From contig CM059432.1 of NCBI GenBank assembly GCA_030390025.1, positions 39,744,001 through 39,808,000 of the forward strand: a DNA stretch of 64,000 nt, read 5' to 3'. How positions within the stretch are numbered: the first letter of the stretch is position 1; the number at the start of each line of letters is the position of its first letter. Positions 3,362-60,082 of this stretch are shown piece by piece. This DNA is from Squalus acanthias. Taxonomy: Eukaryota. A program made the position numbers and the translations under genes. The notes below the pieces were generated by a model. That model saw only the letters and a program-made list of their open reading frames with translations, had not been told where the DNA came from and did no database searches.

Positions 3362-3447
3362 AATAGATAGGGCTTGATGGCCGGCGCGGACACGATGGGC
3401 TGAAGGGCCTCTTTCTGTGCTGTATAACTCTATGATTCTATGACTCT
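728..3447 (+). mobile_element. Young 5'-truncated CR1 LINE nested in an older antisense CR1
   Basis: Uninterrupted APE-endonuclease (partial) plus RT frame; 3'UTR with (ACTCTATG/ATTCTATG) tail ending at 3447; host CR1 sequence resumes at 3448 (AACC on both sides). Confidence 0.95.
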
Positions 3448-8547: not shown

Positions 8548-9553
8548 GTGAGAGTGACATCAAGGCAGCATTTGACTGAGTGTGGCATCAAGGGGCCCTA
8601 GTAAAACTGAAGTCAATGTGAATCAGGGGGAAAACGCTCCACTGGCTGGAGTCATACATAGCACAAGGGAAGATGGTTGTGGTGGTTGAAGGTCAATCAT
8701 CACAGCCCCAGGACAGCGCTGCAGGAGTTCCTCAGGGCAGTGTCCTAGGCCCAACCATCTTCAGCTGCTTCATCAATGGCCTTCCCTCCAACATAAGGTC
8801 AGAAATGGGGATGTTCGCTGATGACTGCACAGTGTTCAGCGCCATTCACAACTCCACAGCTAATGAAGCAGTCCATGCCCGCATGCAACAAGACCTGGAC
8901 GACGTTCAGGTTTGGGCTGATAAGTGGCAGGTAACATTCGAGCCACAGAAGTACCAGGCAATGACTATCTACAACAAGCAAGAGTCTAATCACCTCCCCG
9001 TGACATTCAACAGCATTACCATCACCGAATCCCCCACCATCAACATCCTGGGGGTCACCATTGACCAGAAACTTAACTGGACCAGACACATAAATACTGT
9101 GGCAACAAGAGCAGGTCAGAGGCTAGGTATTCTGCGGCGTATGTCTCACCTCCTGACTCCCCAAAGCCTTTCCACCATCTACAAGGCACAAGTAAGGAGT
9201 GTGATGGAATACTCTCCACTTGCCTGGATGAGTGCAGCTCCAACAACACTCAAGAAGCTCGACACCATCCAGGACAAAGCAGCCCGCTTGATTGGCACCC
9301 CATCCACCACCTTAAACATTCACTTCCTCCACCACTGGCGTACCGTGGCTGCGGTGTGTAACATCTACAAGATGCGCTGCAGCAACTCGCAAAGGCTTCT
9401 TTGGCAGCACCTCCCAAACCCCCGACCTCTTCCACCTAGAAGGACAAGGGCAGCAGGTGCATGGGAACACCACCACCTCCAAGTTCCCCTCCAAGTCACA
9501 CACCAACCTGACTTCGAAGTATATCACCAATCCTTCATCGTCGCTGGGTCAAA
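8548..9553 (+). mobile_element. CR1-clade LINE family B, RT C-terminal fragment
   Basis: [41 protein letters not shown]; same family as 37405-38556 and 46486-46984. Confidence 0.85.
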
Positions 9554-10899
9554 ATATATGCAAATAGGCGGCCTAACACCTGTTTGCGGCCCTGCCTTGC
9601 AAAATTCATCACCGACTGACCTCAACATGTACCGTGCATGCTGCGGTCAGCATTCTCAGGTGCTTGGCAGCCAAACCAGCAACCGTTATAGGTAAATTTT
9701 AATTCATGTACTTATCATTTTGTGGAGCCTGGAGGAGCAGGAGTGTTCCTCCCAGCTCCACATTAAATTCGCGGGTGGCTGCTGGCCATTGCTTGCTCCC
9801 CCTCCCGATTGCCTCACGTCTCCCACTACCACCGGACTCTGCTTACAACCTCGGACGTTGGCCGATCTTGATGCTGCCCATGACTGGCAACCTGTCCCTG
9901 GGACCGCGCTGGCACACAATCCAATTCAGACACAATCCAATTTCAAGGCCAATATGTCTTGTATATTAGAATGGTATGAGTCACAAATGTGATATAAATA
10001 TATATTATTAATGATACTTTTTGCTCTCGACAAAAATGTGCTACGGAAATATGATGTAGCTATATTTTCATATAATCTCCAGAAAACTGTGATTTTGATT
10101 ATACCTGCAACTGCCTGCCTATCATCTTTTTAAAATCAACCAAAGGTACCTTAGCAGTATAGAGGATACACTTCCATGACAACCTCAGTATAAAATGGTT
10201 TGCCATCCCTCCACTTACTTTATAAGATAGGCTTACCTCATAGGTCTTTTTGCTATCTTTTTATAAAATAAAGACTGCTACGTCAGGGATGAAGTCCACT
10301 ACGCTAGTACATTAACTCTTCATCATGATAGCGCCTTTGCATTTGTAGAAGTCCCAACAATTCAAAAGGCTTCATTTAACTCCATCATGTGCTATAGCAA
10401 AACTGCTAGTGATGTAGGAAAAGCACAGAAACAGCATGGCCAGTTGTGAATTGAAAGGCTGATGTGTCATTTAACTGTCAGAGTCTAAGGGGAAATAGGC
10501 AAGTTTGCAAGAAAGCCCTGCAGAACAGAATTACTTCATATCAACAACAGATCTCAGTATTAATAATGTACTGAGGATAGCAGATTCTCTCAACCATGAA
10601 TAACCCACTTATTATCAATTCCCTGATGCTGTATAAGCAGTCACCCATTATCATTTAAAGGATCATCTTAACACAATACTTCCATTATTAAAATCTTTTA
10701 TTCACCACCTCCATCCCAACTGTTTTGTTGTAGAGCATCAGAATTAGATGTACTCTGTAATGACCCAGTTTTGTGCTTCGTCATGTGCCATTAACTCTTT
10801 TGTTGTACTGTGGGACAAATTACTAGAGTATTCAGGGACATCAAGTTGAGGAACTAACTTCATTTTTTTCCCATTAGTGGTACCATAACAGTAGTGAGA

Positions 10900-37240: not shown

Positions 37241-37404
37241 AATTTCTTCCTTGGATCCTTGCTGTGCGCAAATTGTCTGCTGCAATTCCCTACATTATAA
37301 CAGTGACTACACTTCAAAAATATTTAATTGGCTGTAAAGTGCTTTGGGATGTCCTGAGGATGTGAAAGACACTATAAGAAGGGAAGCTATTTCCATTTTT
37401 CTTT

Positions 37405-38556
37405 TATTCGTTCATGGGATGTAGGCGTCTCTGGCAAGGTAGCATTCATTGCCCATCCCTAGTTGCCCTTGAGAAGCTGGTGGTGAGCCGTCTACTTGAA
37501 CCGCTGCAGTCTGTGTGATGAAGGTACTCCCACAGTGCTGTTAGGGGGGGAGTTCCAGGATTTTGACCCAGCGACGATGAAGGATCGGCGATATACTTCT
37601 AGGTCAGGATGGTGTGTGACTTGGAGGGGAACTTGGAGGTGGTGGTGTTCCCATGTGCCTGCTGCCCTTGTCCTTCTAAGTGGTAGAAGTCGTGGGTTTG
37701 GGAGGTGCTGCTGAAGAAGCCTTGGCGAGTTGCTGCAGTGCATCTTCTGGATGTTACACACTGCAGCCACGGTATGCCGGTGATGGAGGGAGTGAATGTT
37801 TAAGATGGTGGATGGGGTGCCAATCAAGCGGGCTGCTTTGTCTTGGATGGTGGCGAGCTTCTTGAGTGTTGTTGGAGCTGCACTCATCCAGGCAAGTGGA
37901 GAGTATTCCATCACACTCCTTACTTGTGCCTTGTAGATGGTGGAAAGGCTTTGGGGAGTCAGGAGGTGAGACACTCACCACAGAATACCTAGCCTTTGAC
38001 CTGCTCTTGTTGCCACAATATTTATGTGGCTGGTCCAGTTAAGTTTCTGGTCAATGGTGACCCCCAGAATGTTGATGGTGGGGGATTCGGTGATGGTAAT
38101 GCTGTTGAATGTCAAGGGGTGGTGGTTAGACGCTCACTTTTTGGAGATAGTCATTGCCTGGCACTTCTGTGACGCGAATGTTACCTGCCACTTATCAGCC
38201 CAAGCCTGAATGTCATCCAGGTCTTGTTGCATGCGGGCATGGACTGCTTCATTATCTGAGGAGTTGCGAATGGCACTGAACACTGTGCAGTCATCAGCGA
38301 ACATCCCCACTTCTGACCTTATGATGGAGGGAAGGTCATTGATGAAGCAGCTGAAGATGATTGGGCCCAGGACACTGCCCTGAGGAACTCCTGCAGCGAA
38401 GTCCTGGGGCTGTGATGATTGACCTCCAACAATCGCAACCATCTTCCTTTATGCTAGGTTTGACTCCAGCCAGTGGAGAGTTTTCCCCCCGATTCCCATT
38501 GACTTCAGTTTTACTAGGGCTCCTTGATGCCACACCTGGTCAAATGCTGCCTTGAT
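37405..38556 (-). mobile_element. CR1-clade LINE family B, 3' 1.15 kb
   Basis: [26 protein letters not shown]; 3' tail catcccatgaacgaataaaag. Confidence 0.9.
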
Positions 38557-39960
38557 GTTCATTTCTTTTCTTTAATTCCACACAAGTTAACAGGAAGGAT
38601 GAAGTTTCTGGGTTGGTGTCTATTGACCAAGCCTCCCTCTTCCTGTTCATTAATGCCACAGCATTATGAAAGGGGCACATATTGGCCACGTGGGTTCTAT
38701 CAATGCACTTCTGGGAACTCAGCCATTATGCAAAGGTGAAGAGCCCTCTCCTGCTGATTTTCCTCATCCTTAGGAATATTTATAAAGTTGTTGGCCCTGG
38801 CAAATAATGCCTCATTTGCCTGCCTGATCTGGTATATGTCACCTGTGGCACCTTGAAAGAAGCCAATGGCATGCAAGTTCGAGGTAGTCGTGATTTTCAC
38901 CCCCACAGGCAGAGTAGTCCCAGTCGTAGAGGAGGTTTGGAGACCCCACTGCAGAGTCCGCAAAGTTCAATGACTGCCTTCGTAGTGAAATGTAAAAATG
39001 AAATGAAAAAGACACAGTTCCTCCAATATGTCCAGGAAACAGTGTTGTGGTATCTACAAATGGCTCAATAAAAACATAAGAACATAAGAAACATAAGACG
39101 TAGGAGCAGGAGGAGGCCAATCAGCCCCTCGAGCCTGCTCCGCCATTCAATAAGATCATGGCTGATCCAATCTTAGCCTCAACACCACTTTCCCACTCTC
39201 CCCATACCCCTTGATTGCCTTGTAGTTCAAATATCTGTCAAACTCGACCTTGAATATATTCAATGACTCCGCCTCCACAGCTCTCTGGGGTAGAGAATTC
39301 CAAAGATTCACGACCCTCTGAGAGAAGAAGTTCCTCCTCATCTCCGTCTTAAATGGGCGACACCTTATTCTGAAACTATACCCCCTATTTCTAGATACCC
39401 CCACTAGGGGAAACATCCTCTCAGCATCCACCCTGTCAATCCCCCTCAGAATCTTATGGGGGAAAAATTCAGTTGGTTTGCGCCTCCCGTTAGCGCGTAA
39501 GAGGGCGCTAATGGGGCGCAAAGCAACTAGCGCCCGGGCGCAGCGATATCTGCGCCTCTCACGAGATTGACCGGACATTTTGCGGCGGTGCTAAACAATA
39601 CCGCCCCAATCTCCTGTGCACGCAGATCTTGATGTCATTCGAGCGTGCAACGCCCTTCTGGCGCCCCGGAACAGAAATTGAGTGGTGCCCCCCTCCTTTC
39701 CACCTGGCGCAACCAACGACAGGTAGACTGGAACACTTCCCAGTCGCTGTGGGGCTGGGGGGGCGCTATTTAAAGGGGGCCTCTTCCTGTGGTAGACATT
39801 TTTGCACCACTCGTTCTGAGAGAGACAGAGAGATTCTGAGAGAGAGAGAAAGAAAGACTTCTGCATTGAGTCAATGCTGTGTGAAGTAGTTTTGGCTACT
39901 GAGCATAACTTTGCAGGTACTTTAGTTTTTGACCTTCATAACTTTGATTGCCAAGAGACT

Positions 39961-41124
39961 ATGGGGGCTGCACTAATTGGGGGCGTTGTCCTGTGCCAGC
40001 AGAATCGGAGGCCACAGAGACACAGAGAGAGAGTGGCAATCATGGCCAGACGGAGGAGGGCCAACAGGCCTCTGTACAGGAGACCTTACCCTCCCAGGGT
40101 ATTTCGGCAACAATTCTCCTACATTAATATGTCTGAGGAGCAGTGTTTGCGAAGGCTGCGCTTCAGCAAGGAGGTGGTCACTGAGCTCTGCCACCTGCTG
40201 CAGCCAGATCTGCAGCCTCAACTGAGGACCAGGACGTCTCTGTCGGTGGCAGTGAAGATCACAGTGGCTCTGAACTTTTATGCCACCGGCTCACTTCAAT
40301 CAGCTACTGGGGACATCGCCAATATCTCCCAGTTCGCGGTCCATTGCTGCATCCGTCAGGTCACAAATGCCCTCTTTAAAAGGAGACGAGAGTACATCTC
40401 TTTCCCCATAACCCCGGCCAAGCAGCATGAACGCGCAATGGGCTTTGTGAGGATAGCGGGCTTCCCCATGGTGCAGGACGCCATTGACTGCACGCATGTG
40501 GCTTTGCGTGCTCCGCATGAGAATGCAGAGGATTTCCGCAACCGAAAGGGGTTCCATTCCTTAAACGTGCAGTTGGTCTGTGACCACAGACAGCTGATAC
40601 TCGCTGTCAATGCCCACTATCCTGGCAGCAGCCACGATGCATTCATCCTGCGCCAGACTACTGTGGCAGAACTTTTCCAGGCACCGCATCACCCAGGTGG
40701 TTGGCTTCTCGGGGACAAGGAATATCCACTGTGCACTTGGCTGATGACACCGCTCCGTACGCCCAACACCCCTGCTGAGCTGCGGTACAACGAGAGCCAT
40801 CTTGCTACCAGGAACATCGTTGAGCACACAATCGGCATGCTCAAGCAACGGTTCCGCTGTCTGGACCATTCTGGAGGAGCCCTGCAGTACTCGCCTGAGC
40901 GAGTCTCCCTCTTCGTAGTTGTGTGCTGCATGCTGCATAACCTGGCAATCCTCAGGACCCAGCCAATGCCACCAGGCCTTGGCGCACCACCAGAGGAAGA
41001 GGAGGAGGAAGAGGAGGAGGAAGAGGAGGAGGATGATCATCAGCAGCACCAAGGCGGGAGGGAGGCACACAATGTAGAAACTGGAAGGGCCGTCCGTCAA
41101 CGTCTGATAACAAGCCGCTTCTAG
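39961..41124 (+). CDS. Harbinger DDE transposase (HARBI1-like family), 387 aa from ATG 39961
   Basis: AIDCTH, NRKGFHSLNVQLVCD, YPGSSHDAFIL, WLLGDKEYP, RNIVEHTIGMLKQRFRCL, CCMLHNL, poly-E tail; no stops. Confidence 0.93.
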   Translation: MGAALIGGVVLCQQNRRPQRHRERVAIMARRRRANRPLYRRPYPPRVFRQQFSYINMSEEQCLRRLRFSKEVVTELCHLLQPDLQPQLRTRTSLSVAVKITVALNFYATGSLQSATGDIANISQFAVHCCIRQVTNALFKRRREYISFPITPAKQHERAMGFVRIAGFPMVQDAIDCTHVALRAPHENAEDFRNRKGFHSLNVQLVCDHRQLILAVNAHYPGSSHDAFILRQTTVAELFQAPHHPGGWLLGDKEYPLCTWLMTPLRTPNTPAELRYNESHLATRNIVEHTIGMLKQRFRCLDHSGGALQYSPERVSLFVVVCCMLHNLAILRTQPMPPGLGAPPEEEEEEEEEEEEEDDHQQHQGGREAHNVETGRAVRQRLITSRF

Positions 41125-41435
41125 GCCCCTGCTGAGGAAATGGCTTCTGCCATTGAGAACAACATGAATGAAACCAACCCGCAACCCCTAAGCATGCCAA
41201 GGCAGCAATGATTCCAAAGACCAAACATGTACATTTTGAATACAGAAACTTATTTATTTTACAAACTCTGTGTGTGTCATTTCCTCATGACAAACTAATA
41301 GAAAGAAACACAAAAAAACAGTCATTAACATAACTGGTTCTCACAACCTGGAGATAATGTCCAAAACACTAAACAAAAGTTTGACCACGAACCTCGGCCT
41401 TTAATAAAAAAATGACCAACATTTTGTCACACCTC

Positions 41436-43309
41436 CTACTTTTTGCCCTTCGAGGGTGATCTCCTTCCCTTGCGTACTTCCCCCCTTCCCACCCTACTGC
41501 TCCTCCGTAATGGGACCCCAGTGGCTGCAGCAAGGCAGGTGGAAGGCTGCTGATTGTCAGAACCTGAGACTGCAGATGCCCTTGAAGGATGGCCTCGACC
41601 AGCTCTGGGCCTGGAGGGCCCGGCTGCAGACTGCACCAACTCTGCATGGGCGGCAGCAGTCTGTACTACAGGCAGTGGCAAGTGCAGTGGAGAAGTGACA
41701 GTGGCGGCAGCAGGAATGCTGTCATCTTGAGAGAGGACAGCAACTCCCTGCTCGACCAACACACTGGCACTCCCACGGGGCAGCACTTCAGCATCCGGAG
41801 CAATCTGCTGGAGCACAGATTGCTGGCCTGCTGCGGCGCGGTGAGCGCCCCGGGGAAATGTGTCCGAACCAGCGAGGATGGCAGCAGTCAGTGCTTGCGT
41901 GGCCTCAATCTGAGTCTGCATGAGAGCAGTCAGAGATGGGGTCATGGCAGCCAGTGACTGAATTGCAGCACTAAACATTTGCGTGGCATCCGCCTGTGCT
42001 ACAGCAAAGTGCTCCACACTCCTTGCCAGTGATTCAATGCATTCGGGCACCCTTCCCACTGCACCCATGAGCTCAGTGTGCATGTCCACCGCCTGGGTGT
42101 TCATTTCAGTGATCAGCCGCTCCTCCTCTGCGTCCAGTGCAGTAGGACTCGCTGGCATACTTTCCCTCCGGGGAGAAGGCCCCCGAGCTTCCCTACTCCC
42201 ATCACGTTGCTGCAGCCCGCTGGGTCCTGGAGCTTCACCCTCATCAGACCCTTCCCCCCTTCTCCCCTCCAGGGAAGGTGTGTTCCCAGTGTGGGCATGG
42301 GCTTGCTCGGGAGAGGGTGGCGTTGATGCTCCGGCTTCATTTTCCTCCTCGCCTGCAGCTTCACTCCCACTGGCAGCTTGAGGGCCCGTCTCCTCAGCTG
42401 GTGAATCACCATCTGAAAGCAGGGAGGTACAAGAGTGGCTTTAGCGTGAGGACAGGGGGGCAGTAAGGGAGGAATGAGTGCAGCGATTTAGTAAGTTGGA
42501 TTGAAAGTGTCAAAGGCTGGTGTTGTGAGGGACAAGTGGAAGGACAGAGGACAAAAAGGTGATGACCTTACCATTACTGTCCAGAACAGGGTCGGCGTCT
42601 TCTGGGGCGACGGGACCGATCACCCGGCTTGCCACAATCCTCTGGGCGCACGCCTCAAGATCGCTGAGGGTTTGCAGCTGAGGCCGCCCTCCACCCGTCC
42701 GTTGCTGCTGTCTCCTATTATGAGATAGCTTGGCCTGCAAGAAAAAGGACGGCGTCTGAGTAAATATACAGCCATGGTCTTGCCTGATGTGCCTCCCATA
42801 GGTGAATAGTCATTACTGTATGCAGCCATGGTCTTGCCTGATGTGCCTCCCATAGGTGAATAGCCATTACTGTATGCAGCCATGGTCTTGCCTGATGTGC
42901 CTCCCATAGATAAATAGCCATTACTATATGCAAAGTGCGGAATGTGCATGTGTGTTTCATGAGAGGGCCATAGGTGTTGGATGAGTGTTGGGCATTGGGG
43001 TTTTAAGACCCTCTGGCCATAGAGTGAGGTTGAGATGGAGGGATGGAGAGGTATTGAAAAAAAGCCACTCACCCTGACGACCCGAGTGAGGTCGTTGAAC
43101 TTCTTTCTACATTGTATATGGGTCCTGGGCACCATGCTCCTGGAGGAGACGCTCTGAGCCACCTCCCTCCACACTCTTCTGTACTCGCACGGTAAAGGCC
43201 TCCTGCCACTCTCTGGGTACAGTATTGATCTTCTGCGCTCCACCGCACCAACCAGAGTCTCCAAGGCCCGCTCGTTGAAGCGCTGTGCTCGCTCCCTGGC
43301 CCTCTCCAT
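41436..43309 (-). CDS. Harbinger Myb/SANT-like DNA-binding protein; 3 exons 43309-43073, 42734-42572, 42412-41436 (458 aa predicted)
   Basis: Exon 1 RFNERALETLV..WREVAQSV..RTHIQCRKKFNDL; donors GTGAGT and GTAAGG; acceptors ttcttgcAG and ctttcAG; splice phases 0 and 1 give one open frame ending in a basic tail. Confidence 0.85.
42769..42930. repeat. 54-bp minisatellite x3 in intron 1 of the Myb-like gene
   Basis: cagccatggtcttgcctgatgtgcctcccata... starts at 42769, 42823 and 42877. Confidence 0.9.
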
Positions 43310-46229
43310 AGTCCTTGGCTGCAAGATTTAGCTACAGGTCTCTCCAGGCCGAGATTCAAGGCTCCAATGAGCAGGGTGTGGCTGGAGAGCAAGATCGAGC
43401 CTCCCCTTTAAGAACTGGCCGGCGCCAGTGTGTCTGTGTTCCATCGCTAACTGACAACACCTGCACTGCTCCCGCGCTCTGAGTTAGCGCCTCGCTCCTC
43501 GGCCTTTGCGCCTTAAGACAGGTGTGTAGCGCCTGATTTAGCGCTCCAATCAACTCCAGGGCGATAAAAGCCAAGTTTGCAGTCAGAGGCGATAATTAGC
43601 GCCAGGCGCTAAACTTTGTGGCCGGCCGATAATCGTGCCCCAAACGGGGCGATACTGAATTTTTCCCCCTATATGTTTCAATAAGATCACCTCTCATTCT
43701 TCTAAACTCCAATGAGTATAGGCCCAACCTGCTCAACCTTTTATCATACGTCAACCCCTTCATCCCAGGAATCAACCTCGTGAACCTTCTCTGCACTGCC
43801 TCCAGTGTAAGTATATCCTTTCTTAAATATGGAGACCAAAACTGTACGCAATACTCCAGGTGCGGTCGCACCAGCGCCCTGCAATGTTACATCAAAACTT
43901 CCCTACTTTTATACTCCATACCCTTTGCAATAAAGGCCAACATTCCATTAGCCTTCCTAATTACTTGCTGTACCTTCATGCTAACTTTTTGTGTTTCACG
44001 TACTAGAACCCCCAGATACCTTTGTACCGCAGCATTTTGTAGTCTCACTCCATTTAATAATAATTTGCTTTTTCATTCTTCCTTCCAAAGTGGATAACCT
44101 CACATTTTTCCACATTATACTCCATCTGCCAAATTTTTGCCCACTCACTTAACCTATCTATATCCCTTTGCAGACTCTTTGTGTCCTCCTCACAACTTGC
44201 TAATCCACCTATCTTTGTATCATCAGCATATTTGGCTACAGTACACTCGGTCCCTTCATCCAAGTCATTAATATAGATTGTAAATAGTTGAGGCCCCAGC
44301 ACTGATCCCTGCGGCACCCCACTAGTTACTGATTGCCAACCGGAAAATGATCCGTTTATCCCGACTCACTGTTTTCTGTTAGTTAGCCAATCCCCTATCC
44401 ATGCCAATATATTACCCCCAACCCCGTGTGCTCTTATCTTGTGCAGTAACCTTTTATGTGGCACCTTATCGAATGCCTTCTGGAAATCCAAATACACTAC
44501 ATCTACTGGTTCCCCTTTATCCACCCTGTTTGTTACATCCTCAAAGAACTCTAGCAAATTTGTCAAACACGATTTCCCTTTCATAAAACCATGTTGACTC
44601 TGCTTGATTGTCTTAAGATTTTCTAAATGTCCTGCTATTACCTCCTTAATAACGGATTCCAGCATTTTCCCAATGACAGATGTTAGGCTAACTGGCCTAT
44701 AGTTTCCTGCTTTCTGTCTCCTTCCTTTCTTGAATAGTGGCATTACATTTGCAGTTTTCCAATCCGCTGGGACCTCTCCAGAATCCAGGGAATTTTGGTA
44801 GATTACAACTAATGCATCCACTATCTCTGCAGCCTCTTCTTTTAAGACCCTAGGATGCAGGCCATCAGGCCCAGAGGACTTGTCGGCCTTTAGCCCCATT
44901 AGTTTGCCTAGTACTTTTTCTCTAGTGATAGAGATTGTTTTAAGTTCCTCCCTCCCTATAGCCCCTTGATTATCTATTATTATTGGGATGTTTTTAGTGT
45001 CTTCTACCATGAAGACCAATCCAAAATAATTGTTTAGAGTCTCTGCCATTTCTCTATTTCCCATTATTAATTCCCCAGTCTCATCCTCTAAGAGACCAAC
45101 GTTTACTTTAGCTACTCTCTTCCTTTTTATGTACCTGTAGAAGCTCTTACTGTCTGTTTTTATATTATTTGCTAGTTTACTCTTATACTCTATCTTCTCC
45201 CTCTTTATAATTTTTTAGTCATCCTTTGCTGGTTTCTAAAAATTTCCCAATCCTCTGGCCTACCACTAATCTTCGCAACATTGTATGGCTTTTCTTTCAA
45301 TTTGATACCATCCTTAACTTCCATAGGCAGGCATGGATCCACTGAACCCTCCTCCAATGTTGGTGTGCCTGCTTCTGCTCCTGGCTATAAATTCCCCATT
45401 AGCCTCCATCTCCCTCAGGACAAGGGGAATTTCAAAAGGAAACTCCAGCACATGATGAGGATCTGGGTTCCAGCCTAGTTTCTAGCTGTTCCCAGAGAAA
45501 AGGAGGAGTATGATTGAATGACTGTGGATTTTCGAAGCCAAGTTAGTTTATCCTGCAATAGAACAATGTGATATCATCCCATAGTAACAAAGTAGCTTGG
45601 ATTTTACTCTAGGGGAGTTGGGGCAGGACTTCTATCTGCCACATGAGCCCTGCTGTGACCCCTGGATCAGGGGTCATGAGTGATGCAAGAAAAGGCCCTG
45701 ATGGGAACCCCACTCAATTCTAATGGTGTTGCAGCCATACTACTGCCTGAGGAGGCAAAACAAGTTAAAGGAGGTAGAAGAGCCCCAAAGATGCAGGCAG
45801 TTTTTGGATCCAAAGCCTAAAAAGGTAAGAGTATGCAACCTAATGGGATAGATAGGTGCCCAATATGCTCCCTCTCTCCCATAAGTGGCACCACAGGGCC
45901 TTTTGTCACTGCCGTGAAGATTACCAGGACCACCCTCCTGGCAGTCCCTGTGGGCAATGGTGGCATGGGCGGAAGGGAGGAAAGTGGGTCAGCTTTTTGG
46001 GTCCTATCTGCCCACTATAACACGGGTCAGATAGGGAAAGGAGCAGGGTGGCAGAAGATAACCTGTCAAAAATGATCTCCCTAAAGCAGCTGTGGAAGTA
46101 AGTTTGAAACTTGATTTTTTTTGTGCTGCTGAAGTGATTAAAATTAGCCATGATGGGAATCCAATAAAACAGGAGTGTTCTGTGTATTAAAAATGACTTA
46201 TTTGGAACTCAAAAATAAACCTTTCAATA

Positions 46230-47045
46230 CAAGAACATAAGAAACAGGAGCAAGACTAGGATATAGGGCTCCTAAAGCCTGCTCCACCATTCAATAAGAT
46301 CACAGCTCAACTTTTACATCAACTCCACTTTCCCGGCCTATCCCCGTATCTCTTGGTTCCCTTAGTGCCCAAAAGTCTATCGATCTCAGCCTTGAATATA
46401 CTCAATGACAGACATACACAGCCCTCTAGGGTAGAGAATTCCAAAGATTCACACTCCTCTGCGTGAAGAAATTTCTCCTCATCTCTGGATGAGTGCAGCT
46501 CCAACAACACTCAAGAAGCTCGACACCATTCAGGACAAAGCAGCCCGTTTGATTTGGCACCCATCCACCACCTTAAACGTTCACTCTCTCCACCACCGGC
46601 GTACCGTGGCTGCAATGTGTACCATCTACAAGATGCACTGCAGCAACTCGCCAAGGCTTCTTCGGCAGCACCTCCCAAATCCGCGGCCTCTGCCACCTAG
46701 AAGGACAAGGGCAGCAGGCACATGGGAACACCACCACCTCCAAGTTCCTCTCCAAGTCACACACCATCCTGACTTAGAAGTATATTGCCGATCCTTCATC
46801 ATCGTTGGGTCAAAATCCTGGAACTCCCTCCCTAACAGCACTGTGGGAGTACCTTCACCACACGGACTGCAGTGGTTCAAGAAGGCGGCTCACCACCACC
46901 TTCTCCAAGGGCAATTAGGGATGGGCAATAAATGCTGGCCTTGCCAGCGACGCCCACATCCCATAAAACGAATCAAAAAGAAAAGTCCTAAACGGCCGAC
47001 CCCTTATCCTGAGATTATGACCCCTGGTTGTAGACTCTCGAGCCA
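46230..47045 (-). mobile_element. CR1 3' fragment with a nested LINE family B 3' end (+, 46486-46984)
   Basis: CR1 breaks at ctcatctc and resumes gtcctaaacggccgacc; the insert encodes MSAAPTTLKKLDTIQ and ends in an A-rich tail. Confidence 0.85.
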
Positions 47046-48312: not shown

Positions 48313-49050
48313 AATCATGGCTGATCATCTACCTCATCTCCACTTTCCTGAACTATCCCCATATCCCTTGATTCCCTTAATATTCAAAAATCTATCGATC
48401 GCTGTCTTGAATATACTCAACGACTGAGCCTCCACAGCCCTCTGGGGTAGAGAATTCCAAAGATTCACTACCTCCGAGTGAAGAAATTTCACCTCATCTC
48501 AGTCCTAAATGGCCGACCCCTTATTCTGAGACTGTGACCCCTGGTTCTAGACTCCACAGCCAGGGGAAACATCCTCCCTACATCTACCCTGTCAGCCCTG
48601 TAAGAATTGTGTTTGTTTCAATGAGATCACATCTCATTCTTCTAAACGCTAGAGAATATAGGCCTAGTCTACTCATTCTCTCCTCATAGGACAATCCCCC
48701 CCATCCCAGGAACCAGTCTGGTGAACCTTCATTGCACTCCCTCTATGGCAAGCATATCCTTCCTTAGGTAAGGAGATCAAAACTGTACACAATACTCCAG
48801 GTGTGATCTCACCAGGGCCCTATATAATTGCAGTAAGACGTCTTTACTCTTGTACTCAAATCCTCTTGTAATAAAGGCCAACATACTATTTGCTTTCCTA
48901 ATTACTTGCTGTACCTGCATGTTAACTTTCAGTGATTCGTGTACAAGGACACCCAGGTCCCTCTGAACACCAACATTTCCCAATCTCTCACCATTTAAAA
49001 AATACTCTGCTTTTCTATTTTTCCTACCAAAGTGGATAACTTCACATATC
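48313..49050 (-). mobile_element. CR1 3' fragment
   Basis: [26 protein letters not shown]. Confidence 0.85.
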
Positions 49051-49051
49051 T

Positions 49052-49678
49052 CCACCACCTTCTCAAGGGCAATTAAGGATGGGCAATAAATGCTGGCCTT
49101 GCCAGCGACACCCACATCCCGTGATAGAATGACTAAAAAAATATCTGGTCATTTCTCCTCAGAGCCTAAGTAGAAGGCAGCCAAGGACTTCAAAGTACTG
49201 GGCCCAGACTTCATGGGTACTCGCGTCAAAAGACACATGTCTTTTGAGAGATGACACCAATGATTCAATCTGTGCTTTCATGGAGGTGGTGGTCCCGACT
49301 GGTCCCTGGCAGCCTCTTACCTGGGGATCTACTGCAGATCTCAATGAAACTGCCACTTGCTGTATCGGTTCTTACACAACTGACAATGCCTCCATGATGT
49401 TGCCACCAATCAGAGTTGTGAGCCACACCTGTGAGTTGCTGCGAATCTCATCACCCCAGGGCACTAATGTACCTCTCATCTCTCAAAAGACATGTGTCTT
49501 TTGACGCGAGTACCCATGAAGTCAGGGCCCAGTATTTTGAAGTCCTTGGCTGCCTTCTACTTAGGCTCTGAGGAGAAATGACCAGACATTCTTTTAGTCA
49601 TTCTATCATGGGATGTGGGCATCGCTGGCAAGGCCAGCATTTATCGCCCATCCTTAATTGCCCTTGAGAAGATGGTGG
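49052..49678. repeat. Long inverted repeat: 203-bp arms (49052-49254 and 49476-49678) with a 221-bp spacer
   Basis: Arms are near-perfect reverse complements, read directly. Confidence 0.92.
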
Positions 49679-51399
49679 TGAGCCGCCTACTTGAACCGCT
49701 TGGCACTCTTCTGGGTCCCCCATGATTTGTGCCTCAGCCGCTAATAATCTTTTACAAATATCTTTGATACTATTATAAGACATAATTAACTTGCCCGCAT
49801 GCGCCCAAAGACGGAGGCCTGAGGATGGCTAGAAATTGGTCCTCGGGCCTCATCTACATATTTGATGTGAGCTGCCAGGTCCTGTCACACTTCCACAAGC
49901 AGCCTGCCCATGAGAAGACTTCAATTTCGGGCCGACTGCCTCATCGGCAGCAGCCCTCAGGTAAGTACTGAGAGGGTGGGACAGGAGCCGATCGCACCGC
50001 CAGGAGTAGTTTTTACAAACCTTTTCAGTGGTGGCCACTGGCTAGGCTGTATCCACGTTCAGAAAGCCCGAGTAGAGCCTCCAAATTTCTGGAAAGGGTC
50101 CTTAAACAGGTGTTCGGCCCCATCATCATAGGGAAGGGGCTTAACACTTGTTTTTAGGCAGCCACCCGTCCTAATTTTTGGTGGGGCATTTTTCAGGCAT
50201 GTTGCACCCCAAAATTAGTGCGGCATAAAACGAGTGCAACGAGGACCAACTAATAGCACCTCTTAGCCTAAATGAAAAATGATCTCACTAACAGGAATCA
50301 TCCAAATACACACGAAGACTACGCATACAGTGGAGCAACAACAGCCTGCAATGACATGCCACGAGGTAGTGCAATCTCTCCATCCCGTCCAACTTCCTGG
50401 TTTGTGTGATCACAATCTAGCCCCTGGATTTCAACATCGAGCGATTTTATTACAGTAACTCGTAAAAGCTAGGAGCAGTCTGATAACAGCAGTATGTGGA
50501 AGTTGACCAATAATGCAAGTGGCCTAAGGTTTTCAGCATGGGGCCTGAGGAGAAAAATTACCTAAATTCCACATTTGCTTCAGCAGCAAAGTCTCTCTGC
50601 TGGCAACAAAAATCACACCCAGAGAACAAATGCCTGAGTTGGTAGTTCCACAACAAGCTTTCCATAGAATACACAGGCTGAAACTACATCTGTAATATAT
50701 GTGGGTAGAACAAATGAAGGACAGAAACACTAGTTGCTAGTTCGTGAGCTTGCTTTACAAGGCCAGAGTGAACTGAGCATGCTCATATTAAACCGTGTGA
50801 CAAACCATGTGATAATACATTAAACTGCTTTCCCCTTAAAACAAAATGCACATATTCCCCTATCAAATACAACAAAACTATGGTTCCACCTTTCCCAGCA
50901 TTACATGTACCACATAACAAAAACTCCTGGCTTTTTTTTCTTTTAAATCAACTACAAATGCTACAAATGAACTACAAATCCAGTTTAATAACAGGTTTAG
51001 GGAGCCTTCCGAATCTCCTTACAAAAGGTTTTGGTGTTGAACCAATTTTTGGGCTGTTTTGTTCTGGTTCCAAACCCAAAGATGATCCTGTTTCAATCTC
51101 AGATTTGTTTGAACCTGGTACTTAAGTTTCTGAAGTTTGAACGGAGTCAAACTCATGTATGTGTTCATGATTAAGTGGTTCAAGATCATGTCTTAGTTCA
51201 TCTCTAGCAGAGATTACTTGATCTAAATGAGCACTTCGGATTTTGTCACCAATCTCAACTAAATTTCTCTTGGTTCTACCAACCTCTACCACAGTTCCTA
51301 TATCCCACTTGTGTGAACTCAACTTGCCAGGGGGACTGAGAACACAAACACACTCCTTTTGTCTGAAACGGCATTCTTTCCGATTGCTGTCATAATAAT

Positions 51400-52160
51400 G
51401 GCCCAGAAATTAAACAGTGAGGGTTCCCGCAGGGGTAAGGAGTCCCTGCGATATCGCACTCCGCACCTACCTTTTTGCTCCGGGCCCACACGAACTATAG
51501 TTTCAAAGGCTCTCTCTGTTGGAACCATGCAGTGCTTGCGTGACCCAGAGGCGCAATTAGTTCGTGCGAGCTCTGGGATCACGTGATTTAGTTAGAGCCA
51601 ATGGCAGCACACCATCTTTCATTCATAGTTTTGACGGCAAGTGCTGTCAAAGCTATGAATACTACACACCCCCAAAAGAACAGCTAAACCTCAATTAAAT
51701 TTTAAAAAAAAGCCATCACATTAATAAAATAAGTATAGTTAAATAAATTAACCACTTTAAACAAAAAATTAAATTTTTGAAAAGATTTAAAATCTTTTTA
51801 AAAGTTATAAAAATAAACTTACCTTTCTTTAAAGTCTCTAAAAAAGATAAACCTGTTGAAAAAAATTTAAAATAACACTTAATTAACGACTTACCTTGTT
51901 AAAAGGGGGTCCTACGCCTGCTTTATGTGTAAAATCTTCACCACTTACCTGCGCGTTCAAAGCTGGAAAAAAAACTAAGTGCACTGCGTGCGCACAGCCT
52001 GTAGTGCGCACGCGGTTCACTTAGGAACCGCCCCCTTTTCAATTCACGAAGTGCCGGTTTCCCGCGCATGCGCAGTGCATGCAGGAAACCGGCAATTCGG
52101 GATCTAATACGCGAGAGTACACAGTGCGTACTCTCGCGTATTAGGTTTAATTTTCGGGCC
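51400..52160 (-). mobile_element. Harbinger-type MITE (761 bp) in the Gypsy integrase region
   Basis: Ends GGCCCAGAAATTAAAC / GTTTAATTTTCGGGCC, TSD AAT; homolog of 21175-21939. Confidence 0.88.
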
Positions 52161-54119
52161 AATGTTTCTGATTCAACTGTTTCTGTTCAACTCTTGAGGC
52201 CAAATTTGCTTGAACAAGACTCAATCGTGTTCTCAATCGCCTCTTCATCAAGAGTTCTGCTGGGGTATATCCACTTGTAGTGTGCGGAGTCGTTCTGTAC
52301 TCCAGCAAGAAATTTGCCAAACGTTGCTTCATGCTGAATCCCGAACAGCGCTGCAACACTTGCTTTTTGAGAGCTTCTTTAACTATTCTGACTGATCTTT
52401 TGGCTGCTCCATTTGAAGCTGGATGATATGGTGGACTGAGAGTATGTTTGATACCGTTCCATTTCATGAACTCTTGGACTAAAGCAGAACGGAACTGAGG
52501 GCCATTGTCAGAAACAAGCTCTTCTGGTAAGCCATGACATGCGGAGATAGACCTCAACTCATCTATGGTACGTTCAGTTGTAGTATTTGAACCCATGTGT
52601 TTCACTTCAATCCAATTTGAGTGACTATCTACAAGTACCAGGAAATAATAATTTGCTTTCTCACAGAAGTCTACATGTACTCTCTGAAAAGCTCTACTTG
52701 GCCATGACTAGGGTTGTAGTGGAGTTTTGGGTGGTTTGTTTATGCAATTTTGGCAAACACTGCATTTGCTGACAAGTGATTCAAGATCACTGTCCAATCC
52801 AGGCCAGTAAACAGAACTTCTTGCAACTGATTTCATACTGATGATCCCTGGATGTTCAGTATGAAGTTCGTCCAGAATTCTATCTCTCAAAGAAGAAGGT
52901 ACCACCACGCTGTTTCCCCACTTGATACAACCTTGCTCACAAGACAATTCAGTACGACGGTTATGGAATGGTTTCAACTCTGTGTCCAGACACTGATCAG
53001 TCCATCCATTCAAGGTGTTTTCATGCACTCTTTTCAGTACTGAGTCCTTTTGAGTCTCATCTGCAATCTCAGTTGCATTCACAGGAAAGTCTTTGTCAAC
53101 TGCACCTAGCATGAAAATCTCACCTTCACCAACACAAGTCTTCATGTGGCAACCTGGACAAGGCATCTGCGATTGCGTTTTGCTTTGAAGTGCGATATTC
53201 AATTGTGTAGTCATATTGTGACAACAACACCGCCCAATGTAGCATTCTTGATGCAGCCATTGCAGGGATGGCAGATTTGGGCCCCAATGTTGCTAGGAGC
53301 AGTTTGTGATTAGTTATCAGGGTAAAGTTTCTGCCGATCAGGAACTGTTGGAATTTCTTGATTCCAAACACTATGGTGAGTGCTTCCTTTTCAACTTGCG
53401 CGTAATTACTTTCGTTCTTTGTGAGGGTTCGCGATGCGAGCGCAATTGGTTTCTCTTGGCCATCATCCATTACGTATCTTATGACAGCTCCCACACCATA
53501 GCTAGAAGCATCACATGCTAGCTTAAGCTCACACTCTGTGTCGTAGTGCACAAGTAGAGCATCGCTAGAGAGACTTCTCTTACAAGCATCGTAAGCTTCC
53601 AGTTGCACTTTTGTCCACTTCCACTGGACATCCTTCTTGAGGAGCTCGTGCAATGGAGCTAACATGGTCGCTAACTCAGGTAAGAAACGTACGTAGTACT
53701 GGACCATTCAAGGAAAGATCTTAACTCAGACACGTTCTGTGGCTTTGGAGCATTGATGACAGCATCAACCTTTTCCTTTACTGGTTGCAAGCTATTTGCA
53801 TCAACTTTCAGACCAAGGTACACAACCTCGGGCTACACAAAAGCACATTGGCTCCTTTTCAATTTTACATTGTGGGAATTCAACCTTTGAAAGCACTAAT
53901 TCTAACATTTCTGGATTTTCTTCCTCGCTGCTTGTTGCAATCAGCTCATCATCTTGATTGCATAAGCAATTTGGAATTCCTTGCAAAATCTTATCCATCA
54001 TAGCCTGGAAGATTTTAGGGGAGGACTTTACACCATACGACAGCTTGGTGTATGAGTACAGTCCCTTGTTGATAGTGAGATACTGTTGACTTTCTTTGTC
54101 AACATTCAGCTGAGCGTAA

Positions 54120-54452
54120 GAAAAGAAAGACTTGAAAGACTTGCATTTATACAGCGCCTTTCACGACCACCAGACGTCTCAAAGCGCTTTACAGTCAATG
54201 AAGTACTTTTGGAGTGTAGTCACTGTTGTAATGTGGGAAACGTGTAATTTGCACACAGCAAACTCCCACAAACAGCAATGTGGTAATGACCAGATAATCT
54301 GTTTTTGTTATGTTGATTAAGGGATAAATATTGGCCAGGACACCGGGGATAACTCCCCTGCTCTTCTTTGAAATAGTGCCATGGGATATTTTACGTCCAC
54401 CTGAGAGAGCAGATGGGGCCTCGGTTTAACGTCTCATCTGAAAGACGGTGGC
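54120..54452 (-). mobile_element. Deu-domain SINE, 5'-truncated, in the Gypsy RT
   Basis: Reverse complement of 8405-8540 plus an L2-type tail. Confidence 0.8.
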
Positions 54453-54817
54453 AACAGGTCAAGCCAACAGAAAACCTTTGACCCAGAGAGTGTTGCATAC
54501 AAATCTTGTGATGTAGGTAACCGGTACTGTTCATCGTCAACTGCTTGGTTGATAGTAACTTTGTAGTCACCGCACAAGTGTACAGTTTTGTCTGCTTTGA
54601 GCACTACCACAATCGGGGTAGCCCATTCACTTTTGTCAGTTTTTACTCGCACTCCGTTCTCTCTCAGTTTCTCTAGATCTTCTTCCACCTGACTTTTCAA
54701 CACATAGGGGACCAGCCTTGCCTTAAAATAGACAGGCTTCGCATTGGACTTGATGCGAATATACTCGTCATACCCAGTGATGTCCTCATAACTGTCTGTG
54801 AACATGCTTTTATACTT

Positions 54818-54915
54818 CTGATGAAGGATCATCGACCTGAAACGTTAACTCTGTTTCTCTCTCCACAGATGCTACCTGACCTGCTGAGTATTTGTTGCAT
54901 TTTCTGTTTTTATTT
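54818..54915 (+). mobile_element. 98-bp Penelope-like terminal insertion starting with a hammerhead core
   Basis: 14-bp TSD ATGCTTTTATACTT (54804-54817 and 54916-54929); CTGATGA-stem-GAAAC-GTT. Confidence 0.8.
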
Positions 54916-55335
54916 ATGCTTTTATACTTGTTCAGCATTGTGTTGAGTCGCTTCTTTGAAGCATCTACACTGAAGATGTTTTTCCAGTCTAGTTTCAACT
55001 TTCTCAACCAGTCTTTGCCCATGAGGGTTGGGCTGTTGTTGTAGTTCGCTACAATAATAGGCAGCTTTACTGACTGGCCATTGTGCTGAACTGTACATTC
55101 CATTTGTCCACATATCTCTAGGATTTCTCCAGAGTAGGTTTTTAACTCTACGGTACTCTTTGTAAGTGGTATTTGATTAAATTTACTCTCATATGTGTCC
55201 TTACTCATGATAGAGCAGTCCGCCACCGTGTCAATACACATATCAATATATTGGTCATTGATCAAAATTTTTTACGGCAGTCTTTCTCACGACTTCTAGC
55301 ATTGTCGCTAGTGGTATAGATACTGTAGATGACTA

Positions 55336-56976
55336 GTGATATCTTGAGACACAGCATATATATACACAACAGCACAACATGGCTTCTGGTAAGAACTGTA
55401 CTGCATATGGCTTTATTATTATATACATCAGTAGTCCACCAGGTGGCTCTATTTAACTTCTTCAATAAGGAGGGAGAAGTGTATCAGCAAATAATCATTG
55501 TACATGACTTGCATGGTATACACAACTCTTGGTATACATTTCTCAAATGGAACCCATTTTATGTTTCCAACTGATCCTTGTATTTCACTGGTATGGTGAC
55601 ACTTCCTACTACAGGGATTTTCTCTCCTGAGTAGACTCGCATCTCTACCTTCAATTTCTCTAGTCGATAATCACGCAACTTGTCGCAATACAGTGATTCC
55701 AGTACTATGTCACGGATGCAGCAGTGTCGATTTCCACGAGTATCCTGCTTCCTGCGACATCTACTTGGATGACGATACCTCGTGAATCGCTGTTAGATAC
55801 CTTCGTGCTCCTGATGATGTGAATCTCCAGAAACTCCTCGTCCTGTTGCTTCTCTTCGACAGTATGTAGTGTCTGGTGATTTCTACTTCTAGCATTGCCA
55901 GTCGGTTTACTCTTCTGTCGGCATGCCTTCGCAAGATGCCCAGTTTTCTTGCAATAGAAACACTCTGCCTTCACAGATGGACAGCTTTGAGCGATATGTT
56001 GTCCCCGGCACTGATAGCACGACTTCAATGCACTGTTACCTTGGCCAGTTGCTGAGGCTTTGGGGCCCAACTGTCTTTTACTTTTAGTCTGCAGCCGATT
56101 CTCCTCAGTTGGCTGACGACTGGAAATGGCACGGAACTCTCGGGAGTATCGGTCAGCCATATCCATCGACATAGCTGTCTGACAAGCTAAGTCAAAAAGC
56201 AAGTTAGGGGTTGTCAACAATTTACTTCTGATACGTTCATTTTTCAACCCACAAACAAAGTGGTCACGCAAAGCTCGGTCCTGAAAGTTTCCAAAATGAC
56301 AGTGAATAGATAGCTTTTTTAAAGCTACAATGTACTCACTGATGCCCTCGTCATTAATTGATCACATGCATCAAAACAGTAACTTTCAGCAATTTCCAGG
56401 GGCTCAGGACTGTAGTGCTATTCTAACTTGGTTATGATCTCCTTCAGTGGCGTGTCCTTTGGCTTGGCGGGAACAAGCTAATTTTTCAGGGTTTCATACA
56501 CCTCGGGGCCTGCTTCAGTCAAAAAAATAGCCCGTTTAATTCCTTACGGTTTACATCATCAGGGACTTCGACAATACTAACCGCAGTGAAAAACATTTCT
56601 AGCCGCTCCACATATGTTATGAAAGTCTCTCGATCATGATGGAACTCACCCAAGCGCCCCATCATTCCCATAGGCACAGCCATCTGTACTCTGGCAACAT
56701 CAACAGTTCAGCCACGTGTGCTCGAAATTTACCTCAGATTTTTAAGATTTTCTTCAAAACAAAGAACCTCTAACAGTCCCTCCGTCAGTTGGCAGGATTA
56801 TCCTCCAACAAAAATTTCAGCTAGGGAAATCTGCAATCGCATCCTCATCGCCAATTCTGTGATATATTGAGACACGGCATATATAAACAACAGCACAACA
56901 TGGCTTCCAGTAAGAACTGTACTGCACCTGACTTTATTATTATATATACCAGTAGTCACCAAGTGGCTCTATTACA
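55336..56976 (-). mobile_element. Internally deleted Gypsy element (LTR-PBS-gag-protease-LTR) nested in the outer Gypsy
   Basis: ~119-bp LTRs at 56858-56976 and 55336-~55454; PBS TGGCGATGAGGAT (56841-56853, tRNA-Ser-like); two CCHC knuckles; EIDTAAS; TSD GACTA/GCCTA. Confidence 0.85.
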
Positions 56977-56981
56977 GCCTA

Positions 56982-57567
56982 CTTCTTCAATATCAGGTCT
57001 GTTCACTTCAATATTGTGAATTCCTCCCTTTTGTTGTCGCTCTTTTGCATTGCCACTAGAATGGTTCTTACTTCCTGCTTTCGATCTAGCTCAGCAAGCT
57101 GTTGAAATATGGCCTTGCTTCTGGCAGTGAAACACTTCACATTTCTGTATTGGCAGGTCTGTGGTGAGTGATTTCCATTGCAGCGATAATAATTCACTGA
57201 ACTGCTCTCACTGACATGCTTTTGACTTGGTCTCGCAGCTTTAGGTTCGGCGGTGGCTTTTTGACTGTAGACCTCAGCTACACGAGTCACTTGAGTTGGA
57301 CGGAACTCCCTAGCATTCTTAGATGCCATCTCCATAGATAGGGCAATTTTGCATGCTATGTCAAACATTAGGTTCGGAGTGTTCAGTAATTTGGACTGTG
57401 TGCGCTCATCAATCAGTCCACACACAAACTTATCTCGCAACGCACAATCCAAAAATGTGCCGAAGTTACAATGCAAAGACAGGTTTTTAAGAGCTACAAT
57501 GTACTCACTGATGGTTTCACTTTGTTTTGGTTTCTGGTATCAAATTTATAGCTCTCTGCTATTTAAG
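56982..57567 (-). pseudogene. Outer Gypsy gag (C-terminal part); N-terminus at ~59790-59925
   Basis: HCNFGTFLDCALRDKFVCGL; zinc-knuckle remnants; MATPTGFIGSLG..YIEQMEMFFKVNNI. Confidence 0.8.
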
Positions 57568-59420
57568 TACATAAGAACATAAGAAATAAGAGCAGGAGTA
57601 GGCCATACGGCCCCTCGAGCCTGCTCCGCCATTCAATAAGATCATGGCTGATCGTCGCCCTCAACTCCACTTTCCCACCTGATCTCCATATCCCTTGATT
57701 CCCCTAGAGTCCAAAAATCTATCTATCTCAGCCTTGAATTTACTCAAACACTCAGCATTCACAGGCCTCTGGGGCAGAGAATTCAAAGATTCACAACCCT
57801 CTGAGTGAAGAAATTCCTCCTCATCTCAGTCTTAAATGGCCTACCCCTTATCCTGAGACTATGCCCCCTAGTTCTAGACACTCCAGCCAGGGGAAACAAC
57901 CTCTCAGCATCTACCCTGTCAATCCCCTTCAGAATCTTGTATGTTTCAATGAGATCACCGCTCATTCTTCTAAACTCCAGAGAGTATAGGCCCATTCTAC
58001 ACAATCTCTCATCATAGGACAGCCCTCTCATCCCAGGAATCAATCTAGTGAACCTTTGTTGCACCGTCTCCAAGGCAAGTATATCCTTCCTTAGATAAGG
58101 AGACCAAAACTGTGCACAGTACTCCATGTGTGGTCTCACCAAGGCCCTGTACAATTGTAGCAAGACTTCCTCACTCTTATACTCCAACCCCCTTGTAATA
58201 AAGGCCAACATGCCATTTGCCTTCCTTATTGCTTGCTGTACCTGCATGCTAGCTTTCTTTGTTTCTTGCATGAGGACACCCAAATCTCTCTGAACACCAA
58301 CATTTGAAAGTATCTCACAATTTCAAAAATATTGTTTTTCTATTCTTCCTACCAAAGTGAATAACCTCACATTTCCCTACATTATACTCCATCTGCCACC
58401 TTACTGCCCACTCACTTAGTCTATCTATATCCCTTTGCAGACTCTTTGTGTTCTCCTCACAGCTTACTGTCCCACCTAGCTTTGTATCATCAGCAAACTT
58501 GGATACATTACACTCGGTCCCTTCATCTAGGTCATTAATATAGATTGTAAATAGCTGAGGCCCCAATACTGATCCTTGCGGCACCCCACTAGTTACAGCC
58601 TGCCAACATGAAAAAAATTCATTTATCCCTACTCTCTTTTCTGTCCATTAACCAATCCTCTATCCATGCTATTATATTACCCCCAACCCCATGAGCCCTA
58701 ATCTTGTGTAATAACCTGTTATGTGGCACCTTATCAAATGCCTTTTGGAAATCCAAATATACTACATCCACTGGTTCCCCTTAATCTACCCTGCTAGTTA
58801 CATCCTCAAAAAACTCTAATAAATTTATCAAATTCGATTTCCCTTTAATAAAACCATGTTGAATCTGCCTAATCATGTTATGATTTTCTCAGGTGACTTG
58901 ATACCACTTCCTTAACAATGGATTCCAGCATTTTCCCGATGACTGATGTCAGGCTAACTGGCCTGTAGTTCGCTGTTTTTTCTCTCCCTCCTTTCTTGAA
59001 TAGCGGTGTTACATTTGCGACCTTCCAATCCGCTGGGACCATTCCAGAATCTAGGGAATTTTGGAAGATCAAAACCAATGCATCCACTATCTCTTCAGCC
59101 ACCTCGGATGTAGACGGCAGGTCCAGGGGATTTGTCGGTTTTTAGTCCCATTAGTTTCTCTCGTACTTTTTCTCTACTTATATTAATTACGTTAAGTTCC
59201 TCACCCTCATTAGACCCTTGGTTCCCCACGATTTTTGGTATGTTTATTGTGTCTTCTACTGTGAAGACAGATACAAAATATTTGTTTAATGTTTCTGCCA
59301 TTTCCTTATTCCCCATAATAATTTCTCCTGTCTTAGCGTCGAAGGGCCAACATTTACTTTTGCTACTCTTCCTTTTCACATACTTGTAGAAACTCTTACA
59401 ATCTGCTTTTATATCGAGTT
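57568..59420 (-). mobile_element. CR1 LINE (5'-truncated) in Gypsy gag
   Basis: (CATAAGAA) tail, RT motifs; same subfamily as 39073-45325. Confidence 0.9.
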
Positions 59421-59600: not shown

Positions 59601-60082
59601 CTTCAAACGACACATCCTTCACTTTCTCTGGCGCGAGTAAATTTGTTAACATTCCTTAGACATCTGGCTCAATCTCCATTGGAAAAATTGCTTTTTTACA
59701 TTCACGAATTACTTTATTTTGAGCTTGAACAGGAGCAGGCTCGAGGGGCCGATTGGCCTACTCCTGCTCCTATTTCTTATGTTCTTATGTTCATCTGCAC
59801 CTTCAGTCTCAATAATGTTATTGACCTTAAAAAACATCTCCATCTGTTCAATGTAAGAACTGAATGGTTTGCGAGATCGGTCATATATGCCAAGGCTTCC
59901 GATGAATCCCGTAGGTGTGGCCATGATTGTCACGAACCCGTTGACCAGTGACTCAGAACACTACCTGTGTGCCTGTGAGAATCAACGCTGCTGTTGCACG
60001 AAGGCGAACCACACATGATTCTGACTAGTCCACAAGCTAGCTTTACCAGACCAGAGTGAACTGAGCATGCTCATACTAAACC

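Follow-up and report, generated by a model that had tools for sequence, protein, structure and literature searches.

A stretch of 64,000 nucleotides of the Squalus acanthias genome (GenBank assembly GCA_030390025.1, contig CM059432.1, positions 39,744,001 to 39,808,000 of the forward strand; hereafter the window, with positions counted from its first letter) was analyzed, revealing a full-length, structurally complete two-gene PHIS/Harbinger DNA transposon inside a long interspersed nuclear element (LINE). The element carries an intronless transposase gene with a D-D-E catalytic triad and, on the opposite strand, a three-exon gene for a Myb/SANT-like protein. It is bounded by terminal inverted repeats (TIRs) that start with GGGGG and are complementary at 16 of 16 positions, and TAT stands on either side as a target-site duplication (TSD). 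The original prediction for this locus, a complete Harbinger with perfect TIRs, a TAT TSD and a hidden spliced Myb-like gene, was borne out by the open reading frames (ORFs), domain matches, homolog comparison and empty sites described below (Table 1).

Ends and insertion site

The assignment to PHIS/PIF-Harbinger draws on a DDE_Tnp_4-type transposase, the Myb/SANT gene, short TIRs beginning with G, a 3-bp TSD confirmed by empty sites, and membership of a dispersed multi-copy family. When the element and one TAT were removed, the flanking sequences aligned gap-free over the junction with two LINE paralogs, at ~57.9 kb and ~19.4 kb of the window; a third paralog, at 48.6 kb, is more diverged around the junction. 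Sequencing runs provided a second comparison. Among 24 listed runs, 12 (4 studies, 4 organism labels) contain 0.59–0.65 of the sampled element words, and four of the 24 were compared in detail, with 200 bp of LINE flank to either side of the element included in the counts. All four contain contigs (8, 5, 6 and 13) with a joint that omits exactly 4215 bases (4212+3), with 3 ambiguous letters. These joints most likely represent paralogous LINE sites; they are proof of the 3-bp duplication, not of an insertion polymorphism.

GCGC cores are enriched at both ends of the element relative to dinucleotide simulations, but not in its interior, and a motif scan placed a TATA-like box at each end, facing the gene of that end. 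The GCGC-rich ends are candidate binding sites, and the TATA-like boxes are candidate promoters.

The transposase and the spliced Myb-like gene

The transposase ORF is open over 387 residues, as predicted, and several top homologs have MGAL-type N-termini in agreement with its start at 39961. The triad residues D176 (40486), D252 (40714) and E288 (40822) are the majority residues across 120 homologs, 56 of which keep D-D-E. An AlphaFold2 model built from a 74-row alignment has a mean predicted local distance difference test score (pLDDT) of 87, with D176 in a strand and E288 in a helix. A PDB search by sequence returned poly-Glu matches only, and a fold search gave no match at E<=0.001, with weak matches, the best at E=5e-3, to piggyBac, Tn5 and integrases. 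An ESM Atlas search reached a best score of 0.84, a lead at most. Prediction of a complex between transposase residues 30–340 and exon-3 residues 85–215 of the Myb-like gene gave a score of 0.00, with alignments not used.

Two substitutions beside catalytic residues, G to D and G to E, had been flagged from the sequence, and both are real: D173 (position 40478) stands against G in 99 of 117 non-gap homologs, and E254 against G in 81 of 115. Three further departures had been overlooked, namely L112 (F in 104 of 112 homologs), A236 (P in 90 of 113) and I100 (V in 94 of 110). The runs, where G at residue 254 accounts for 97–100% of depth in all four, lend support to the suspected copy-specific damage by G254E.

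For the Myb-like gene, three exons of 237, 163 and 977 nt with GT-AG borders join in an open frame of 458 residues, exactly as claimed. Homologs were found with exon 1 (68 in total), followed by comparison with the remaining exons, the intron read-throughs and the other frames. Exon 2 matched 11 of the 68 without low-complexity masking and none with it, and in all 11 its first residue follows directly on the last residue of exon 1. Exon 3 matched 5 or 6 of the 68, depending on settings, whereas intron read-throughs and other frames matched none. One homolog, P0125, aligns to residues 2–455 of the spliced model, and in six of six homologs tested the spliced model scored higher than the read-through (273–723 versus 161–237). 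Since the homologs are themselves gene models, this support for splicing is comparative. Judged by these comparisons, the three-exon model is well supported. A word-indexed search with the conserved exon-3 block confirmed none of 449 candidates.

Expression in another form, such as read-through of intron 1 to a 229-residue product, was also considered. The exon-1 frame stays open across intron 1 and on to 42620, a 54-bp repeat within the intron preserves it, and no spliced read of the gene was seen with any tool; none of the runs listed for the element is given as RNA. The two putative RNA runs examined (X16 and X18) both behave like DNA: no splice joint is found among the 15 joints listed of 333, an intron-1 bin equals the exon bins in depth, and X18 contigs at 42207–42445 and 42981–43362 cross exon-intron borders. 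Against read-through, its product matches none of the 68 homologs, exon 2 is residue-adjacent to exon 1 in every homolog that matches it, and P0125 spans nearly the whole spliced protein, making this alternative very unlikely.

Three side observations concern this gene. The 54-bp triplication in intron 1 (42765–42932) had been overlooked by the original prediction. In three of the four runs (X18, X5 and X1), contigs have a loose end at 43333 (43286–43333), beyond which the upstream sequence differs while, by eye, the reverse complement of the first codons is retained; this fits a second subfamily with a conserved start and a variable 5' untranslated region (UTR) of the Myb-like gene. Lastly, the two convergent genes have candidate poly(A) signals that would give 3' UTRs overlapping by ~155 nt (41253–41408), which could form double-stranded RNA.

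Table 1 Features of the Harbinger element and its host LINE, in window positions.
Feature	Position	Strand	Basis
Host LINE, 3' part, split by insertion	39077–39457	-	83% identity to copy at 57564–57938
Left TSD, TAT	39455–39457	.	Empty-site comparison; 4215-base joint with 3 ambiguous letters, 4/4 runs
Left TIR, 16 bp	39458–39473	+	Complementary to right TIR
Left subterminal region, GCGC-core-rich, candidate Myb-binding sites	39474–39770	.	10 GCGC/313 bp vs 3.4 simulated, P=0.003
Candidate TATA-like box 5' of transposase	39767–39774	+	Motif scan
DDE transposase ORF, intronless, 387 residues	39961–41124	+	PF13359 E=1.1e-39; model pLDDT 87
Candidate poly(A) signal, Myb-like gene	41253–41258	-	Motif
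Candidate poly(A) signal, transposase gene	41403–41408	+	Motif
Myb-like exon 3, 977 nt including stop codon; acidic linker, conserved block, basic tail	41436–42412	-	Best E=3e-21
Myb-like intron 2, 159 nt, GT-AG	42413–42571	-	Read-through has stops; 0/68 matches
Myb-like exon 2, 163 nt, RTGGG motif	42572–42734	-	Abuts exon 1 in 11/11 matching homologs, 68 tested
Myb-like intron 1, 338 nt, GT-AG, exon-1 frame open, no homology	42735–43072	-	0/68 matches
Three tandem 54-bp copies within intron 1	42765–42932	.	Copies differ at 2–5 positions; frame-preserving
Myb-like exon 1, 237 nt, Myb/SANT-like domain	43073–43309	-	PF13873 E=2.7e-9; 68 homologs
Right subterminal region, GCGC-core-rich	43400–43653	.	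8 GCGC/270 bp vs 3.1 simulated, P=0.016
Candidate TATA-like box in right subterminal region	43407–43414	-	Motif scan
Right TIR, 16 bp	43654–43669	-	Complementary to left TIR
Right TSD, TAT	43670–43672	.	Empty-site comparison; 4215-base joint
Host LINE, 5'-ward part with reverse transcriptase fragment	43673–45214	-	81% identity to 57940–59414; PF00078 E=4.4e-16

Family copies, age and surrounding sequence

All 30 bins of the element are covered in each of the four runs, and most contigs are 90–99% alike. In the two DNA-type runs, single transposase positions were found in tens to more than 100 contigs, with the alternative letter at position 40294 present in 55 and 108 different contigs. The element belongs to a dispersed, abundant multi-copy elasmobranch family; summed contig depth was rejected as a measure of copy number.

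Comparison of the window with the four runs gave 672 rows of differences, of which 40 are listed, 37 of them within the element. At 16 of these 37 sites the letter of the window is at odds with 90% or more of the depth in every one of the four runs. Among the coding private differences 5 of 14 are silent, against a neutral expectation of 0.27 (P=0.32), and they look like neutral drift. At the listed sites, the private differences of the transposase are F112L, A163V, G254E and one silent change; A163V is CpG decay, and two of the three residue changes fall at conserved columns. Run X1 mostly matches the window letter at 10 subfamily-type sites and hence contains the subfamily of the window copy, yet it differs at all 16 private sites.

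Private divergence has a lower bound of 0.38% (16 sites) and an upper bound of ~1.4%, set by the best run with 0.65 of the sampled words. At the rate of 7e-10 per generation reported for the epaulette shark (PMC10587355), 0.38% corresponds to ~5 million generations (2.7–27 million across the published interval), on a borrowed rate and on the assumption that the changes postdate insertion. Perfect TIRs and TSD are expected with a probability of 0.59–0.89 at 0.3–1.4% divergence, and are therefore no evidence of youth; their use as proof of it was rejected.

Taken together, we consider it likely that this is a full-length PHIS/Harbinger copy of an abundant elasmobranch family, which inserted in a LINE with duplication of TAT, has drifted neutrally since, and is ageing rather than jumping. 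The copy is young within its family and probably old in generations, and its competence is doubtful. Because several changes lie at conserved sites (F112L, G173D and G254E), its transposase is probably impaired rather than a functional source.

Several observations weigh against this account. Both ORFs are open, which has P ~0.02 at 1.4% neutral divergence with an assumed indel rate (0.26–0.44 at 0.3–0.5%), placing the copy among the younger ones. Eight of the 17 listed differences in the Myb-like gene are silent (P=0.04–0.10). GDKEY together with D-D-E is present in three conserved elasmobranch proteins (P0019, P0062 and P0082), so the fold probably tolerates G254E, while G173D lies outside the 40 difference rows listed of 672. 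The source species is possibly missing from the runs, in which case some private letters may mark an unsampled younger subfamily, and the mutation rate used comes from another species.

The open ORFs, the silent differences in the Myb-like gene and the conserved relatives with GDKEY, together with the intact triad, the perfect TIRs, TSD and splice sites and the confident transposase fold model, are what favors a young, competent autonomous copy from a recent subfamily absent in the runs, with its substitutions tolerated. The listed transposase differences argue otherwise, three of four changing a residue, as do the 16 private letters, which at least 90% of depth lacks even in the run with the same subfamily letters as the window. 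The ends are moreover common to runs of four organism labels and four studies, which fits an amplification predating their splits. We regard a young, competent copy as rather unlikely. Of the earlier description 'young, still competent', the intact ORFs and triad stand, while youth and competence are weakly supported in view of the at least 16 neutral-looking private differences and of TIRs that are uninformative on age.

The element had also been proposed as a mobilizer of local MITEs (miniature inverted-repeat transposable elements). A BLASTN search of the window with the element returned only the element itself and its internal repeat, and a TIR scan of the window allowing up to 3 mismatches gave a single unpaired extra match; no cognate MITE was found in the window, and the proposal is not supported. 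Within the element, the bin at 43416–43569 has 3.0–31.7 times the median transposase depth in all four runs, and the bin at 39566–39719 has 0.1–1.8 times. In terms of summed contig depth, which is no copy number, this is a hint of non-autonomous relatives elsewhere in the genome that share the right end.

The remainder of the window consists of LINE and long terminal repeat (LTR) debris. Two LINE copies in opposite orientation (729–3442 and 60082–62782) are 96% identical, and the first contains an open frame of 978 codons that encodes endonuclease and reverse transcriptase domains; the pair therefore represents a young LINE family. LTR retrotransposon fragments on the minus strand (~51400–57550) contain RNase H and integrase domains, and a gag-like stretch is seemingly duplicated (55708–56361 and 57006–57539). 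An element bearing reverse transcriptase is present in three copies 90–93% alike (8557–9555, 37397–38558 and 46474–46984), one of them just left of the host LINE. A 206-bp inverted repeat of 95% identity (49049–49254 / 49476–49681, within 49049–49700), with parts found again at 37.4 and 46.9 kb, is possibly a MITE of another family.

Relatives, target site and possible domestication

The best 58 transposase matches all come from sharks and rays, the top one from the sawshark Pristiophorus japonicus (68% identity over 90% of the transposase), and the ten Myb homologs looked up, of 68, are all elasmobranch. A tree was built from the window and 63 of 120 homologs (16 chosen sawshark rows and 47 others), after two more were dropped for low coverage; it includes no named HARBI1, Nuwa or Harbinger3_DR sequence. 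The window falls among sawshark copies and two ray proteins, in a starred clade of 19 rows. Sawshark proteins such as P0001 and P0125 share this clade, and P0125 is collinear with all three Myb-like exons; unlike the element, they are automatically named gene models, many of them degenerate, known from proteins alone. One sawshark gene model, P0009, has a Myb domain and an exon-2-like segment fused to a transposase, probably by mis-joining of tandem element parts. A metagenome scan with a 20-nt subterminal pattern returned one locus, L001, which is otherwise dissimilar to the element and was taken as chance, and none of 602 candidate stretches in the viral contigs searched was confirmed.

At least four transposase clades with short branches contain members of different shark or ray orders (P0019/P0023/P0062/P0082; P0010/P0016; P0006/P0012/P0014/P0015/P0020/P0022; P0004/P0005), as delimited by the tree and by 90%-identity clusters, which for instance bring together catshark, white shark and bamboo sharks. 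Most of them lack part of D-D-E. On the Myb side (cluster P0130 and homologs P0121, P0131 and P0132), a Myb-like protein is conserved at 90% or more across the ray genera Hypanus, Mobula and Hemitrygon, and Narcine, Rhinoraja and Heptranchias have similar proteins. It shares the exon-3 block and is a possible domesticated partner gene. The cross-order clades look like candidate undescribed elasmobranch-specific domestications that pipelines label 'HARBI1'. The source label 'putative nuclease HARBI1' was rejected as proof of orthology.

That label among the homologs, and the several related clades conserved across orders, could suggest that the window itself holds a domesticated host gene pair of the HARBI1/NAIF1 type. 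The TIRs, the TSD, the empty site in the LINE, the many copies and the neutral look of the private changes speak against this, and the window lies among long-branched sawshark copies outside the short-branched cross-order clades; a domesticated pair at this locus is extremely unlikely. HARBI1, NAIF1 and MSANTD1-4 go back to the same pair of Harbinger gene types but are host genes conserved across jawed vertebrates (PMC9392472), whereas the element here has TIRs, a TSD and many copies.

Published PHIS groups are defined by their TSDs (TWA, AT, ANT, CWG and TNA; PMC4482050), and TAT, or ATA on the other strand, fits none of these classes, as judged at a single site. The narrow PIF/Harbinger group is alike in having two ORFs, G-starting TIRs below 60 bp, a mean length of 4124 bp close to that of the element and an A/T-rich 3-bp TSD (PMC4482050), but its TWA is one base off the TAT seen at this site. 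NuwaI and NuwaII, compared by description, also have two ORFs (DDE and Myb/SANT), TIRs of 12–61 bp starting with GGG, lengths of ~4.2–4.7 kb and animal hosts, but NuwaI duplicates CWG and NuwaII targets C|TNA|G, against T|TAT|A at the single site here; the host lists given for both name no cartilaginous fish (PMC4482050). Harbinger3_DR of zebrafish, reconstructed and active in human cells, is likewise a vertebrate two-gene element with DDE and Myb-like proteins and a 3-bp TSD (PMC3016246, PMC2836001); by description its target core is CWG, in contrast to TAT/ATA. Of the positions in its 15-bp motif (PMC3016246), the target here matches 8, all of them located in the centre or the outer arms. 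A match at this level is reached by 4.6% of window positions, and the resemblance is a weak lead from one site.

In the Harbinger family both proteins are required for transposition, the Myb-like protein binds the TIRs and the transposase N-terminus and imports the transposase, and excision mostly takes away one TSD copy (PMC9179366, PMC9392472, PMC2836001). This mechanism is established for Harbinger3_DR and Ping/Pong, and we infer its counterpart here by analogy. In this pathway, the two convergent genes would be transcribed from opposite ends of the element, and the Myb-like protein, produced by splicing in vivo, would bind the ends, here probably at the TIRs and the GCGC-rich subterminal sites. 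It would then bind the transposase and bring it into the nucleus, followed by excision of the element by the D-D-E transposase and its reinsertion with a 3-bp duplication. The ends of this copy are probably still mobilizable in trans.

A 2022 survey reported Harbinger as absent in the elephant shark and flagged other cartilaginous fishes for examination (PMC9179366), and repeat annotations of the whale shark and grey reef shark name the superfamily as a repeat class only (PMC8455134, PMC12498223). We found no literature description of a full-length shark Harbinger or of shark-specific domestications, although the family may already be catalogued in paper supplements, Repbase or Dfam, which were not searched. 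The Harbinger mechanism is already known, and the element is a known system in a little-described lineage, for which the locus supplies the full anatomy of ends, TSD, exon structure and family alleles. Since sharks mutate slowly, copies stay near-intact for long and serve well as templates in a two-component assay, and for the same reason 'intact' must not be taken to mean 'young'. Near-intact shark copies would also be good templates for a first Harbinger transposase structure, given the PDB search results above.

A more far-reaching reading, which we offer tentatively and consider unlikely, is that the element stands for a Harbinger clade of elasmobranchs not yet described, with a target rule of its own: a TAT/ATA core between outer arms like those of Harbinger3_DR, distinct from the published TWA, ANT, CWG and TNA classes. 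On this reading, members of the clade may still move, and four or more domestications of it among sharks and rays would have produced lineage-specific genes derived from the transposase and from the Myb-like gene. If true, vertebrates would have a second two-component transposon whose target choice is extended, and a mobile near-intact form alongside domesticated descendants would allow a direct test of what domestication changes.

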